64,000 nucleotides of DNA from a virus, in IMG/VR virus record IMGVR_UViG_3300033512_000075, positions 1 to 64,000 of that record; one strand, given 5' to 3'. A program made the position numbers and the translations under genes. Position 1 is the first letter of the stretch; each line of letters begins with the position of its first letter. The notes beneath the pieces were generated by a model. It saw only the letters and a program-made list of their open reading frames with translations. It did not search any database and was not told where the DNA came from. Below are positions 42,601 to 45,600 of this stretch, piece by piece.

Positions 42601-45600
42601 ATAGATTTAACTTTAATTCATTTAATCAGCTAATATCTCCATTCGTATTAGAGTCTATAGGTATAAATAGATTCTATGAAGATATAAATCAAGACTTAGA
42701 TAACAGACAAGTAGCAGAGCAGGCATTCCTACAGATGGTTAGACATAAGCCATCATTAATAAAATCAACAGGAAATCCTATAAGAAATGTAGACGGACTT
42801 ATTGAAGTAGATAAGGAATATGTAAAAGAGATTGAAGACTATAAAGATTTAGATAATATACTTAAAGTAGGTGTAACAGAGCCTTATATATTATGGAAGA
42901 TAGCTGATTTGGAAACAGCAAGTAAGTCAACTTATAGAATAATGCCTCTATTGGGAAAAGGAAACAAGACAGAATTCGTAAAAGGAGAAACTCTTACAAA
43001 ATCAGTACTTAACGCTAATGAAGATACAGCAGTAATTAGTGAGGACTTTGGTTCTATAGTATTAAACGGAAAAGAAGTAAGATTACATAAGTCAATAACA
43101 TCCCTGTATCAAGATGTAAATAAGATAGGTAAGAAAGAAGCACTTGAGTCATTAAGTAGCTTTAAGGACAAGTTCATATCTACAGTAATAACTAAATTAG
43201 AGAAGTATATACCTGAAGATTTGTCTTTAAGTATAGATAATACAATATATACAAAAGGAGTCAATATAAATAGCAAGAAGATAAAGATAAACCCTAATAG
43301 ATTTAACACAAGTATGTTAAATTATAAAGGTGTAAGAGATGAATTTGAGACTACATTACAGCATGAGTTATTACATACTATATTTAATAACTTATTAAGT
43401 GTATCTGATAGTGATACTAAGATAGTTAAAGATGAAGGAGTAATGAAGAGAGTTGAGGTAATAACTAGGATATATGAACATCTATTAAATGAGAAACTTG
43501 CAGGTAATGCTAAAGGAAGCACAGACAGAATGCTTACTGATACGTATGATGCAGAACTTAATAATGCCTTAGATAGTATAGACGAGTTTATGATTGCACT
43601 TATGACTGACAAGAATGTATTTGATAAACTAAAAAACATAACATATGACAAAGTTAATTCAGATAAATCGGCAATAGAACAAGCACTAATAAAGACAAAT
43701 AATCTATTTACTTATTTACTTCTTCAGGAGGGAATGACTAAAGATGAAATAAATAAGTTGAGAGGTATAATAAGTGAGGAAGGTAATAAGAGTTCTGAAG
43801 AGTTAGTAAATGAAATTAAAACAGAAAATAAAACTTCCAGAGAAAGAGTAAATGATTCACCGAAAACTGAATTAGTGATACAGACTAAGGCTGACTTGAA
43901 AGCTAAAGTAGAAAGTACTAAAGCAGATGTAGTTATAAACAGCAGTAAAACACCTATATTCAATACACTACCAAGCAAATCAGATAAGAAAACAATGACT
44001 TACGCAGGTATAGGAAGTAGAGAAACTACACCAGAAGTATTGGAAGCAATGACTAAAGCAGCCAAGTACCTTGAAGATTTAGGTTACACTTTAAATACAG
44101 GAAAGTCATATACATCAACTGAAAAGTATTTAGGTAAAGAAGCATATGATTTAAAGAAAGCAGAATCTGATAGATTAAGTAAACTATATGGCAATAAAGT
44201 AGGAATGGACGAAGAAGGTGCAGACAGGGCTTTTTCAGCAGGTACATCAAGAAAGAACTTATACAGTCCAAATTCACGTATACCTGAAACAGCCATGCAA
44301 GTAATGAAAGAAATACACCCTAAACCAAGTTCGTTAAGTGATGGTGCAGCAAAGCTAATGGCGAGGAATACAAATCAAGTATTCGGTGAGAACTTAGACA
44401 CGCCTGTAGATTTTGTTTTATTCTATGCAGAAGAAACAAATAATAGTTTAAGACCAAAAGGAGGTACTGGACAGGCAGTAGAAATGGCAAGACGTAAGGG
44501 AATTCCCACTATCAATATGTTCAATGATAATTGGAGAGAGCAATTAAAGGAATTACTAAGTAAAGAAAAATTAAAGGAAGTAGAAACAGAAAAAAGAGAA
44601 GTAAATAGAGATGGAATAAATATATCTAGTTACGAAAGTGATTTAGGTAGTAAATTAAGTAATTTTGCAAGACTTCCTATTAATTATAAAGGAGTACGAT
44701 ACAGTTCAAGTGAGGAAGCCTACCAAGAAAATAAACCAAAAGAGAAGTTAACTGAAACAGAGTTCAATGCCAAAGTAAAAGAACTTATGACAGATGTATT
44801 AAGAACTAAATTACTACAGTATCCTGATTTGACTACAGGAATAGATAGAATGGGTGGAATTGAATTTCTTAATAACAGTACGCACAATCTAATAAAAGAC
44901 GGAGTATTAATTAAACAAGACAAGTGGACAGGTAAAGATGGTTTATTTATGCAGTCTTTAAGAGATGCCTATTCAAGTATTAAGAATATAGCAAAGCCAG
45001 CAATCCAACAATCCTTATTTGATACAGAACAAAACCAAACCCAAGAAGTAAATAAAACTGAAAAACCAGTAAGCCTATTCAATAAAGAAGATAAAGAACT
45101 AAAGAAGGGAAGTGTTGTAGAGTACAATGGAAAAAGATACCTATTCTGGAATAACAATAACGGCAAGGCACAGATAATAAATACAGATGGTACTAAATTC
45201 AGTGGTACTCCTAACATAGACAAACTTACTGTATTGGGAAGTTATCAAACAACCATGTACAATAATACAGAGTATATAGTAACAGATAAAGGAAATGTAT
45301 ATTCAGGAGCTAATGGTGGATTAGTATATACTGCACAAGACAATTCTACTAAAGTACAAAAAGAAAGGATAATAAATCAAGCTAAATTAGATAAAGAGAA
45401 GTCAATGCAGACTACTGCAGTAGAGCCTGAAGTAAAACAAGAAGAAAAGGAGATATACATTCCAGAAAAGCTGAAACCTAACACATTTACTTTTAGTGAT
45501 GATGTAGTAATAGATACCCCATTCAAATTAAATACACAACAAGAAGAAGCTTTAGGTAAGATGGAGTCATTTATAAGTTCTAAAGGTAAGAAATTTGTAT

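Follow-up and report, generated by a model that had tools for sequence, protein, structure and literature searches.

A SLOG domain and a NADAR domain lie side by side within one giant phage protein, which raises the question of what the two do there. The protein is encoded in the window, the 64,000-nucleotide stretch of DNA analysed here (positions 1 to 64,000 of IMG/VR virus record IMGVR_UViG_3300033512_000075). An earlier note on this stretch had suggested that the pair are injected counter-defence enzymes, which could strip ADP-ribose from incoming phage DNA or remove nucleotide messengers of abortive infection.

The carrier is a crAss-type RNA polymerase

According to the ORF list and its translation, both domains fall within a single ORF of 3451 aa. 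The following features place this ORF:

19669-21464: ring proteins, upstream of the cargo block
25665..28163, + strand: Crassvirus cargo protein 1 homologue (Pfam crAss_CARG1), which opens the cargo/transcription block holding the giant ORF
36660..47015, + strand: giant ORF, predicted crAss-type virion RNA polymerase with C-terminal extension (ORF translation)
41046..41060, + strand: DFDID, aa 1463-1467, the DxDxD catalytic motif of crAss-type two-barrel RNA polymerases (motif)
43362..43376, + strand: HELLH (HExxH motif), aa 2235-2239, putative zincin-like peptidase as in polyvalent proteins (motif)
45522..46907, + strand: C-terminal Dda/PIF1-like SF1 helicase, aa 2955-3416 (Pfam, PHROG)

By homology, the carrier is a Crassvirales virion RNA polymerase, the N-terminal to central part of which corresponds to gp47 of crAss001. 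In tblastn searches, the 400-800 aa around DFDID matched RNA polymerase entries of crAss001, crAss002 and Carjivirus communis, which are annotated as 'putative RNA polymerase / RNAP catalytic subunit', and structural proteins of Flavobacterium phage FpV4 (E 2e-13 to 5e-32 overall). The 'putative RNA polymerase' of crAss001 was matched at E 2e-13, and FpV4 at E 5e-32. A phmmer search of the polymerase part against the PDB gave no match and no direct tie to the solved gp66 structure. The genes for terminase, portal, capsid, ring and cargo proteins all lie upstream of the giant ORF, and the crAss_CARG1 match scored 33.8 bits (Pfam cut-off 27). On the contig of a relative, crAss ring and muzzle genes are likewise found upstream.

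The C-terminal extension holds, in this order, the HExxH motif region, the SLOG domain, the NADAR-like domain, a linker and the SF1 helicase. The helicase matched AAA_30 (E 1e-21), PIF1 (E 7e-12) and UvrD_C_2 (E 1.6e-10) in Pfam as well as phrog_325 'Dda-like helicase' (E 2e-78); the HExxH region of the window protein had no match in Pfam or NCBIfam. Since these accessory domains sit in the C-terminal extension of the polymerase, the carrier counts as a 'polyvalent' cargo protein, with polymerase, SLOG, NADAR and SF1 helicase in a single ORF among virion genes. The carrier has in common with phi14:2 gp66 and crAss001 gp47 the DFDxD motif, the homology around it and the position in the cargo/transcription block, but it has about 1200 extra C-terminal residues, in which the HExxH motif, SLOG, NADAR and helicase are found. 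Helicase fusions exist elsewhere as well: on some crAss polymerase genes in the databases, the annotation reads 'DNA helicase' or 'exonuclease V'.

That the giant protein is injected, as the earlier note had supposed, gains from the homology to crAss polymerases, the DFDxD motif and the place after the ring and cargo genes, whereas packaging itself is argued from homologues. The crAss001 homologue gp47 was found in virions by mass spectrometry (PMC10172136), the phi14:2 homologue gp66 is packaged in the virion (bioRxiv 10.1101/2020.03.07.982082), and both virion presence and ejection are on record for homologues of the carrier (PMC10172136, bioRxiv 10.1101/2020.03.07.982082, PMC7886860). Because of its homology to gp47 and gp66, the carrier most likely travels inside the capsid and is ejected into the host cell before or with the DNA.

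An exact look-up found no identical copy of the giant protein on record. The public protein P0001, encoded on an 87.7-kb ENA metagenome contig, is the same protein with one residue changed. By megablast, 3 kb of the window had no match among GenBank phages.

A DprA-like SLOG domain precedes a minimal NADAR domain

The region between the HExxH motif and the helicase resolves into four features:

43989..44570, + strand: DprA-like SLOG Rossmannoid domain, aa 2444-2637 (phrog_768, alignment, AlphaFold2, Foldseek)
44103..44216, + strand: lineage-specific helical insertion of ~38 aa inside the glycine-rich SGGAxGAD loop, aa 2482-2519 (alignment)
44571..44612, + strand: charged inter-domain linker, aa 2638-2651 (lower pLDDT, no secondary structure)
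44613..44987, + strand: minimal NADAR (YbiA-fold) domain, aa 2652-2776, about 125 aa (profile and structure)

The earlier note had read a DprA-like SLOG and a NADAR from motifs at 43995-44990, and folded domains of both kinds were found almost exactly there. Its spacing of about 25 aa holds from motif to motif, while the linker from domain to domain is about 14 residues long.

The SLOG domain aligned with 183 of the 191 profile positions of phrog_768 'DprA-like DNA recombination-mediator protein' (E 2.8e-43). It contains the motifs YAGIGSR, G...GAD, EIHP, LMARNTxQ and GGTGQA; the GxGxR first loop, the G-rich second loop with GxD and the GGTG late loop of a Rossmannoid fold are all present. The family (839 homologues at E<1e-5; tblastn matches in 1317 of the 50,697 GenBank phage records searched) has 19 invariant columns, and the window keeps 19/19. 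The invariant polar set consists of R2454, D2522, H2553, R2569, N2570, Q2573 and T2603. Members of phrog_768 typically stand alone, as proteins of 170-200 aa, in phages that include myoviruses and N4-like ones, whereas the window SLOG is internal to a giant protein and, beyond the full-length match, has the 38-aa insertion in the glycine loop.

The AlphaFold2 model of the SLOG domain reached a pLDDT of 92.9, with the insertion modelled as helices (pLDDT 78-89). Its best nine Foldseek matches in the PDB were H. pylori DprA (probability 1.00, TM about 0.47), and LOG structures were not in the top 50. The SLOG profile matched DprA in the PDB at E 0.08, with the GxR and SGGAxGxD motifs aligned; a phmmer search of the SLOG half against the PDB returned chance matches only, and Pfam DNA_processg_A did not match the region. 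Bacterial DprA, which binds ssDNA and loads RecA, is built of SAM, Rossmann and winged helix/DML1 domains. Only the Rossmann domain of these three is present here, flanked by the HExxH region and the NADAR domain, although DprA is the closest solved fold. In SLOG N-glycosidases of the LOG type, the catalytic Glu is part of a PGGxGTxxE motif. The corresponding sequence in the window is GGTGQAVE, with a Glu spaced as in that motif, but several members of the family have S, H, R or D there; a LOG-like glycosidase mechanism is doubtful because the Glu is not conserved.

For the NADAR domain, Pfam found nothing in the SLOG-NADAR region when the whole giant protein and the two-domain fragment were searched as single sequences, so that the call stands on profile and structure evidence. 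The match to NCBIfam TIGR02464 (YbiA-type N-glycosidase domain) was below the cut-off (E 1.6e-3; 18.7 bits, cut-off 73.7), and the domain falls short of every curated family threshold. With phmmer, run exhaustively, 203 relatives were found at E<=1e-3. The family profile matched E. coli YbiA at E 4.4e-4 and the P. nicotianae NADAR (PnNADAR) at E 0.41, and Pfam NADAR (PF08719) was matched by 11 of 33 relatives at E<1 (best E 3.3e-5). Against the PDB by phmmer, the NADAR half found YbiA only at E 1.7. Other searches returned little: there was no tblastn match of the segment in GenBank phages, and a divergent family member had one weak match there, in an uncultured 595-kb phage; a word-indexed homologue search gave no match with the segment and only 4 with the alignment as query; and a scan of IMG/VR for relatives of the SLOG-NADAR fragment found none.

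The AlphaFold2 model of the NADAR domain (pLDDT 90.9) has helices at 52-59, 67-88, 90-98, 102-106 and 130-143 and hairpins at 42-49 and 112-120. In Foldseek, YbiA (probability 1.00) and PnNADAR (0.82), represented by PDB 2b3w and 8bau, were the best and sole meaningful PDB matches, the rest being <=0.1; the TM-score was only about 0.48, the query having disordered tails. The model also matched dozens of viral proteins annotated as NADAR in BFVD, with a probability of about 1.0. Profile searches and structure models, the checks proposed for the two assignments, therefore both bear them out.

The NADAR active site is kept in part

Two sets of residues locate the putative active site:

44712..44735, + strand: E2685 ... 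K2692, motif SEEAYQENK, putative catalytic Glu/Lys equivalents, seven residues apart (alignment)
44883..44927, + strand: H2742 (STH motif), D2754 and W2756 (conservation, sister-subgroup spacing)

E2685 and K2692 align with TSEHYFQAQK of YbiA, with SSEQYFMKRK of 8bau (E43/K50 of PnNADAR) and with E36/K43 of T4 AdfN, the function of which is abolished by mutating E36 or K43 (PMC11257639). Among the relatives, E2685 is conserved in 145/150, K2692 in 139/150, H2742 in 144/150 and W2756 in 146/150. We infer that H2742 is the equivalent of the Glu/Asp/His residue of the NADAR last strand, and that D2754 and W2756 correspond to D130 and W133 of PnNADAR. A sister subgroup has the spacing H-x4-D-x2-W, the same as that of E125-x4-D130-x2-W133 in PnNADAR (residue numbers from PMC11543638). 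The HMMER alignment put H2742 four residues off the E125 position; the proposed equivalence follows the sister-subgroup spacing. A profile of the 'GDKFWES' subgroup, searched against the PDB to align H/D/W with PnNADAR, had no NADAR match.

By contrast, the middle segment that links the Glu/Lys helix to the core helix after it is absent, leaving a gap of about 26-31 residues relative to YbiA and 8bau. In PnNADAR this segment holds R79, W89 and R93, which contact the pyrophosphate of ADP-ribose (PMC11543638). None of the three is kept here, and the W133 equivalent W2756 is the sole remainder of these contacts. Inspection of the catalytic residues, another check that had been suggested, thus gives a divided answer: the Glu/Lys pair is kept, and the segment of R79, W89 and R93 is not. 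NADAR activity cannot be assumed, because that segment is absent; on the other hand, the near-invariance of the polar residues indicates strong purifying selection, which argues for an active enzyme.

Comparison with other NADARs places the domain close to those of phages. T4 AdfN (gp30.3) and the NADARs of Bas32 and Bas60, all anti-DarTG1 ADP-ribosylglycohydrolases, share with it the YbiA fold, the phage origin, the motif xSNF...G..Y/F..xE..xQ..K with Glu and Lys seven residues apart, and, if the equivalence proposed for H2742 holds, a conserved His near the last strand (for the phage NADARs, PMC11125620). They are free-standing, cytoplasmic proteins of about 150 aa, whereas the window NADAR is a domain inside a 3451-aa predicted virion protein. 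AdfN retains an 'AGR...W' middle segment that the window NADAR lacks, and lacks the Trp that the window keeps as W2756. The sequence similarity between the two is limited to about 40 residues; in hmmsearch and global hhalign, the alignment of the family with AdfN was reliable for the N-terminal 40 residues only. PnNADAR E43, K50 and W133 all have equivalents in the window, but at the distinguishing position DarG1, YbiA and PnNADAR have Glu or Asp where the window probably has His. DarG1 is paired with DarT1 and has an N-terminal DNA-binding extension, and the window NADAR has neither this extension nor an adjacent DarT. A minimal NADAR subfamily with the phage-type His and without the pyrophosphate-binding segment looks undescribed so far.

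Architectures among relatives

Among 78 large carriers of the NADAR-like domain, 43 also have the DFDxD motif of crAss polymerases. In 150 NADAR-like proteins, a Dda-like helicase was the most frequent identified co-resident of the same polypeptide (11), and a SLOG domain was present in 13. The NADAR-like domain was found in 0 of the 120 closest SLOG homologues. The SLOG-NADAR pairing is thus a minority architecture, and the idea of an obligate SLOG-NADAR unit was down-weighted on the last count. In the relative P0149, SLOG (aa 4438-4609) is directly preceded by an AlkB-type oxygenase (aa 4255-4421), and the NADAR (aa 4803-4899) follows about 190 residues past SLOG.

The ORF that follows the carrier encodes a further giant protein (47031-54140, 2369 aa) with one domain of interest:

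47514..48227, + strand: ART-PolyVal ADP-ribosyltransferase domain, aa 162-399 of this next giant ORF (Pfam PF18760)

The match to PF18760 (E 6.3e-10, 40.4 bits, cut-off 31.2) is also recorded on the near-identical 87.7-kb ENA metagenome contig. PADLOC models did not match SLOG, NADAR or the ART-bearing neighbour.

A carrier of this kind has parallels in the literature. The polyvalent virion RNA polymerase of N4, described by Iyer et al. (2017, PMC5512222) as bearing ART and zincin peptidase domains, is also a huge multi-effector polypeptide for early transcription, and zincin-like MPTase domains are common partners of virion polymerases; as in N4-type polyvalents, a HExxH motif follows the polymerase, and in the window an ART-PolyVal is encoded next door. 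The N4 polymerase is T7-like, however, and the window polymerase is of the unrelated two-barrel crAss type; NADAR has 0 occurrences in the polyvalent domain list of that paper. The 2022 survey by Iyer, Burroughs, Anantharaman and Aravind (PMC9503650) describes viral SLOG-NADAR(-Macro-DUF4326) with the same pairing and early-virion-deployment logic as here, and argues that NADAR, Macro, Nudix and ART domains are frequently virion-packaged. It places ADP-ribose-processing domains typically as stand-alone proteins or fused to MuF, portal and head proteins, mainly in myoviruses and jumbo phages, and in the text read here we found no mention of a crAss-type polymerase fusion. Coupling of SLOG and NADAR in viruses, packaging of NADARs in virions, polyvalent proteins and anti-DarT NADARs of phages have all been published, and the earlier description of virion delivery of a NADAR as unusual was too strong.

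What the two domains may do at entry

SLOG and NADAR probably help the phage to resist host defences at entry. We lean towards a role in stripping ADP-ribose from the bases of incoming phage DNA or early RNA, and hold this with somewhat less than even confidence. The polymerase would refold in the host and then sit on the entering phage genome, so that the tethered domains would be at high local concentration on the DNA and the first transcripts. The NADAR, as a minimal phage-type (Glu/Lys/His) N-glycosidase, would remove ADP-ribose from nucleobases, above all guanine, in single-stranded phage DNA or nascent RNA, and so reverse the modifications made by host ADP-ribosyltransferases, DarT1-like or others that target bases. 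The DprA-like SLOG next to it may contribute nucleotide or single-strand binding, or a second N-glycosidic activity, and the downstream Dda-like helicase may expose single strands.

A nucleic-acid substrate is proposed because assayed NADARs act on nucleic acid and the window NADAR is fused to a polymerase and an SF1 helicase; the AlkB-type oxygenase of P0149 and the DFDxD motif in more than half of the large carriers point the same way. Removal of ADP-ribose from guanine in DNA has been seen in vitro for DarG1, YbiA, a sigma70-linked NADAR, T4 AdfN and PnNADAR, and the same activity was judged for the Bas32 and Bas60 NADARs from their counter-defence against DarTG1 and their neutralisation of DarT1; all NADARs assayed to date act on guanine-linked ADP-ribose in DNA (PMC11543638, PMC11125620, PMC11257639). 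NADARs tested on RNA reverse guanosine ADP-ribosylation too (PMC11833690), and phage NADARs overcome DarTG1 (PMC11257639). As a cellular parallel, ybiA of E. coli and dinG, a helicase gene, belong to one operon under LexA control (PMC11125620). Against the proposal, the N-terminal extension missing from the window NADAR is the part proposed to bind single-stranded DNA in DarT1-linked NADARs. T4 AdfN and YbiA, also without it, show lower activity on an RNA substrate than does the E. coli C7 NADAR, which is linked to DarT1, and in one study did not rescue DarT1 toxicity (PMC11125620, PMC11833690). Furthermore, the Aravind group, reasoning from context, sees soluble ADP-ribose derivatives as the main targets of phage NADAR and SLOG domains (PMC9503650).

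This last view leads to a possible, though rather unlikely, alternative, in which SLOG and NADAR scavenge soluble NAD-derived signals or toxins (cyclic ADP-ribose isomers, His-ADPR, ADPr-1''P, ADPR) from TIR, Sir2 or ART-based abortive infection. SLOG would bind the ligand or cut its adenine-ribose bond, NADAR would cut another N-glycosidic bond, and virion delivery would allow action before the host response builds. In an analysis of genomic context, viral SLOGs, most of them YpsA-like, repeatedly occur as fusions with or neighbours of NADAR, Macro and DUF4326 domains, and processing of ADP-ribose derivatives is predicted for them (PMC9503650). Consistent with this, three SLOG homologues carry DUF4326 (PF14216), SLOG and NADAR-like domains occur in one polypeptide in both orders and abut in P0072, P0108 and P0085, and a 293-aa 'DprA-like protein' of Erwinia phage RAY in BFVD has the NADAR fold. 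Related phages do deal with NAD-derived signals, since one contig encodes a Tad2-like protein and another a cREC domain, and the invariant polar residues of the SLOG family resemble a small-ligand or catalytic site. However, degradation of an immune signal has been demonstrated for no NADAR or phage SLOG, whereas all assayed NADARs act on ADP-ribose linked to bases; being tied to a polymerase and a helicase on DNA brings no obvious gain against a diffusible molecule; and the variable Glu and the structural proximity to DprA, a single-strand DNA binder, rather than to LOG do not fit. A CBASS-type connection, which the earlier note had also raised, was dropped, as no domain or context feature points to cyclic oligonucleotides.

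The neighbouring ORF suggests a different target. The NADAR might limit or reverse ADP-ribosylation by the ART-PolyVal of the co-packaged giant protein next to it, and so shield the DNA, RNA or proteins of the phage, whether in the cell that makes the virions, inside the capsid or in the new host, as DarG1 does against DarT1. NADAR-ART toxin-antitoxin pairs are indeed established (DarT1-NADAR, PMC11543638; YarT-YbiA, PMC11125620). We consider such an antidote very improbable and down-weighted it, because the window's ART was matched in 0/150 NADAR-like proteins. On two related contigs of crAss type whose polymerase bears a NADAR, ART is also absent among the annotated neighbours; the predicted targets of polyvalent-type ARTs are host proteins and not nucleobases (PMC5512222); and action on protein-linked ADP-ribose has not been demonstrated for any NADAR. 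It is unlikely, too, that the module has no link to ADP-ribose at all and that the DprA-like domain and the Dda-like helicase work on the entering genome, to protect single strands, load a recombinase, process ends or clear proteins from the path of the polymerase. The NADAR fold would then be another N-glycosidase for damaged or modified nucleotides (cf. YbiA on riboflavin intermediates) or a non-catalytic binder. DprA as the closest solved structure and the motifs aligned with it, the frequency of the helicase as co-resident and the repair oxygenase of P0149 are in keeping with such a module, and the missing pyrophosphate-binding segment would fit a substrate other than ADP-ribose. Nevertheless, the SLOG lacks the remaining domains of DprA, the 'DprA-like' label of its family is by similarity only, the conserved Glu/Lys/His/Trp are the active-site set of NADARs, and YbiA too removes ADP-ribose from guanine (PMC11125620).

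Significance

Few known phages are as abundant as the Crassvirales. Should the module prove active, either a nucleic-acid de-ADP-ribosylase or a scavenger of NAD signals would be delivered pre-made, tied to the enzyme that first reads the phage genome. The compact NADAR subfamily, missed by standard annotation and with a partial ADP-ribose site, offers a natural test of which residues the fold needs, and the phage 'DprA-like' SLOG family gains a concrete context for assay. A bolder extension of base de-ADP-ribosylation, to which we give only a small chance, is that the minimal His-type NADAR serves crAss-type virion polymerases as a dedicated cis-acting accessory and, joined with the DprA-like domain and the Dda-like helicase, makes up a 'lesion-clearing' machine, injected and coupled to transcription, as an order-wide layer of counter-defence. 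ADP-ribose, or alkyl groups in the AlkB relatives, would be stripped from template DNA or nascent RNA as the polymerase moves, and early transcription could proceed in hosts armed with nucleic-acid-modifying defences. If true, this would be a previously unrecognised counter-defence layer across the most abundant gut and marine Bacteroidota phages.

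A crAss-type virion polymerase ORF carries the SLOG and NADAR domains

The pair at 43995-44990 corresponds to aa ~2446-2777 of one 3451-aa protein. A public metagenome protein, P0001, differs from it at a single residue (I489V); its ENA contig of 87.7 kb shares the gene order of the window. The 3451-aa protein contains DFDID at aa 1463-1467. By tblastn, the surroundings of this motif match proteins labelled "putative RNA polymerase / RNAP catalytic subunit" in crAss001, crAss002, Carjivirus communis and numerous uncultured crAss-like phages. Flavobacterium phage FpV4 contributes a structural protein to these matches, whose E-values reach 5e-32. 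The extension that follows the polymerase comprises, in order, HELLH, SLOG, NADAR, a ~160-residue beta-rich linker and an SF1 helicase.

Features of the polymerase ORF
36660-47015, +, single 3451-codon ORF holding the pair (ORF list and translation)
43362-43376, +, HELLH (HExxH) motif at aa 2235, between polymerase and SLOG
44103-44216, +, helical insertion of ~38 aa in the glycine-rich SGGAxGAD loop of SLOG (SLOG alignment)
45030-45520, +, beta-rich, Gly/Asn/Tyr-rich linker from NADAR to helicase, aa 2791-2954
45522-46907, +, Dda/PIF1-like SF1 helicase at the C-terminus, aa 2955-3416 (phrog_325, E 2e-78)

The position of HELLH is reminiscent of the zincin peptidase located after the N4 virion polymerase in polyvalent proteins; we found no profile support for this region. 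Short repeats seem to be present in the linker (…YNGKRY…, …YNNTEYIV…), for which a weak CBM_5_12 match (E 0.04-0.11) was the sole database hint. Several deposited crAss polymerase genes are labelled "DNA helicase" or "exonuclease V", suggesting repeated fusion of polymerase and helicase in this group.

Genome context and packaging

The forward-strand region 1-30741 is a Crassvirales structural, or late, block. Downstream of cargo protein 1, proteins of 798, 1965, 3451 and 2369 aa follow in that order.

Features around the polymerase ORF
42-1859, +, terminase
1877-4255, +, portal
5294-6745, +, major capsid
19669-20352, +, ring protein 2
20802-21464, +, ring protein 1
21502-25668, +, 1388-aa virion protein, probably muzzle
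25665-28163, +, cargo protein 1
47031-54140, +, 2369-aa giant ORF immediately 3' of the polymerase ORF
~47514-48227, +, ART-PolyVal ADP-ribosyltransferase domain of the 2369-aa protein (PF18760, E 6.3e-10, above the Pfam threshold)
56291-58774, -, class I/II ribonucleotide reductase large subunit
58984-59820, -, Rv2179c-like 3'-5' exoribonuclease domain protein

Strand and GC skew switch near 54 kb (54000-64000, -). Since an ART-PolyVal domain lies in the adjoining giant ORF, the phage probably packs a transferase beside its NADAR-bearing polymerase. The GC content of the window (~30%) and the nearest polymerase matches, which are Flavobacterium phages, suggest an environmental Bacteroidota host.

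The three polymerase-associated giants of crAss001 were found in virions by mass spectrometry, and their ejection is thought to take place in a partly unfolded state (PMC10172136). For phi14:2, the polymerase is reported to be packaged in the virion (bioRxiv 10.1101/2020.03.07.982082) and, according to the summary in PMC7886860, enters the host with the DNA and transcribes early genes. Because these homologues are packaged, it is sound to infer by homology that the 3451-aa protein would be an injected giant protein, as the earlier note had supposed.

Identity of the two domains

Single-sequence Pfam searches returned no match for either the SLOG half or the NADAR half. In PHROGs, by contrast, aa 2444-2637 matched phrog_768, "DprA-like DNA recombination-mediator protein", over its full length (E 2.8e-43). 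This SLOG family is large: 839 cluster representatives pass E<1e-5, most of them 170-330 aa long and without annotation; a few homologues additionally carry PF02481 (DprA) or PF14216 (DUF4326). In GenBank, 1317 phage records match by tblastn, typically through a gene that stands alone, in myoviruses and N4-like phages. A 46-member alignment has 19 invariant columns, all 19 kept in the window copy (Y2448, G2450, G2452, R2454, G2481, G2520, D2522, F2525, H2553, L2566, R2569, N2570, Q2573, G2601, G2602, T2603, A2610, P2616 and N2619). The loop insertion, present in shortened form in the nearest relatives, could change ligand access. An AlphaFold2 model of the domain (pLDDT 92.9, pTM 0.88) had the H. 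pylori DprA Rossmann domain as its best nine Foldseek PDB matches (probability 1.00, TM ~0.45-0.48); R. palustris DprA also matched (probability 0.95), and LOG enzymes were absent from the top 50. The sequence profile ranked DprA first as well, at a weak E of 0.08, and its alignment pairs the GxR and SGGAxGxD motifs. The DprA-like SLOG Rossmann domain was thus correctly recognized from the sequence. Lacking the remaining DprA domains, it is no DprA orthologue.

The NADAR segment (aa 2638-2790) had zero word-indexed homologues. Exhaustive phmmer against 1.84 billion cluster representatives yielded 203 relatives at E<=1e-3. A profile of 33 of these relatives matched E. coli YbiA (2b3w) at E 4.4e-4 and Phytophthora nicotianae NADAR (PnNADAR, 8bau) at E 0.41, and 11 of the 33 individually matched Pfam NADAR (best E 3.3e-5). 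Against NCBIfam TIGR02464, which models the YbiA-type N-glycosidase domain, the window sequence itself scored 18.7 bits (E 1.6e-3), below the cut-off of 73.7. The AlphaFold2 model was confident (pLDDT 90.9), and in Foldseek PDB searches YbiA (probability 1.00) and PnNADAR (0.82) alone stood out. In BFVD the model matched dozens of annotated NADARs from giant viruses and phages at probability ~1.0. Two further BFVD matches, both at probability 1.00, are notable: Erwinia jumbo phage RAY has a "DprA-like protein" of 293 aa (TMq 0.51), and cr131_1, a published crAss-like genome, has a giant protein (TMq 0.53). Profiles and model together bear out the proposed NADAR motif set.

Predicted active-site residues of a minimal NADAR

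The window motif LSNF...YKGVRYSSSEEAYQENK aligns with FSNF...TSEHYFQAQK of YbiA, SSEQYFMKRK of 8bau and LSNF...GLEGFLQGCK of the T4 phage NADAR AdfN. Because of this alignment, E2685 and K2692 are the equivalents of PnNADAR E43/K50 and AdfN E36/K43, whose mutation abolishes activity or counter-defence (PMC11543638, PMC11257639). Of the catalytic residues, whose conservation the earlier note had proposed to check, Glu and Lys are kept (E2685 in 145 and K2692 in 139 of 150 relatives), as are H2742 (144/150) and W2756 (146/150). NADAR types are distinguished by a residue of the last strand: YbiA has Glu there, DarG1-type NADARs have Asp and those of phages have His (PMC11125620). We infer that H2742 is the equivalent of PnNADAR E125, since the STH-x4-D-x2-W spacing of a sister subgroup reproduces E125-x4-D130-x2-W133 of PnNADAR; alignment attempts gave no direct H2742-E125 match.

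The profile alignment has a gap where a ~30-residue segment with R79, W89 and R93, three ADP-ribose pyrophosphate contacts of PnNADAR (PMC11543638), is absent from the window NADAR. DarT1-linked NADARs have an N-terminal extension proposed to bind ssDNA, whereas the window NADAR lacks it. At ~125 residues, the window domain is a minimal NADAR.

Distribution of the module

Among the best 150 NADAR-like matches, 78 proteins are of at least 1500 aa, and 43 of these 78 carry the signature of crAss polymerases, typically GSDFD[IV]DK, for which the chance expectation is roughly 6e-4 per protein. Relative to the signature, the NADAR-like domain is C-terminal in 35 of the 43 and N-terminal in 8; on the contig of one relative, genes for crAss ring and muzzle proteins lie upstream. 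Because no similarity to the window protein was detected in the NADAR-bearing giants outside the NADAR-like domain, the domain behaves like a mobile module that is exchanged between rapidly evolving cargo proteins of crAss phages.

SLOG occurs in the same polypeptide in 13 of the 150, in both orders, and directly abuts the NADAR-like domain in three relatives (P0072, P0108 and P0085); a Dda-like helicase is part of the polypeptide in 11 of the 150. In the 4927-aa relative P0149 (aa 4255-4899), an AlkB-type 2OG-Fe(II) oxygenase is followed directly by SLOG, with the NADAR-like domain ~190 residues on, an arrangement that may point to repair of nucleic-acid lesions as a theme. The NADAR-like domain was absent from all of the 120 closest SLOG homologues, and none of 50,697 GenBank phage records gave a tblastn match to the window NADAR-like segment. 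The minimal family's only tblastn similarity there is at 522027-522374 of LR756511.1 (E 3e-3), an unannotated 595-kb "uncultured phage". In two related phages that have NADAR-bearing giants, the contigs encode, respectively, a Tad2-like protein (L003, 26211-26771, -) and a cREC-REC protein (L004, 31284-31622, -). Tad2 is a family of anti-Thoeris sponges, and Tad2-like and cREC proteins are linked to NAD-derived signalling.

Possible functions

We tentatively rank first the base-linked de-ADP-ribosylation of phage nucleic acid, because all NADARs assayed to date strip ADP-ribose from guanine in DNA, the RNA-tested members reverse guanosine ADP-ribosylation on RNA too (PMC11543638, PMC11125620, PMC11833690), phage NADARs defeat DarTG1 (PMC11257639), and the window NADAR is tethered to enzymes sitting on DNA or RNA. 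The main rival, which we find rather doubtful, is the proposal of the Aravind group, in which the SLOG and NADAR domains of phages act on soluble signals or toxins derived from NAD (PMC9503650); DUF4326-SLOG fusions, the recurring SLOG-NADAR pairing and the Tad2-like and cREC genes of related phages speak for it.

The missing pyrophosphate clamp, together with the DprA and helicase context, would fit a DNA-transaction role without any link to ADP-ribose, which seems unlikely. Quite improbable is a NADAR serving as antidote to the phage's own ADP-ribosyltransferase: the ART-PolyVal domain in the neighbouring gene is suggestive of it, but co-occurrence in the relatives inspected does not support it.

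Relation to published work

The concepts involved are already published: PMC9503650 covers NADARs packaged in virions and the coupling of SLOG to NADAR in DNA viruses, PMC5512222 polyvalent virion proteins organized around a virion polymerase, and PMC11257639 phage NADARs that counter DarT. The virion polymerase of crAss-like phages has likewise been described. Full-text searches turned up no paper linking crAss-like polymerases with NADAR, YbiA, DprA or SLOG, and Yutin et al. 2021 does not mention ADP-ribose. The observation of SLOG with NADAR is solid. What appears undescribed is a NADAR subfamily of minimal size and His type, with a putative function, that recurs as a part of crAss-type virion polymerases and whose window member is paired with a DprA-like SLOG domain. 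The idea will not surprise specialists; the module is directly testable, and the phage order concerned is very abundant.
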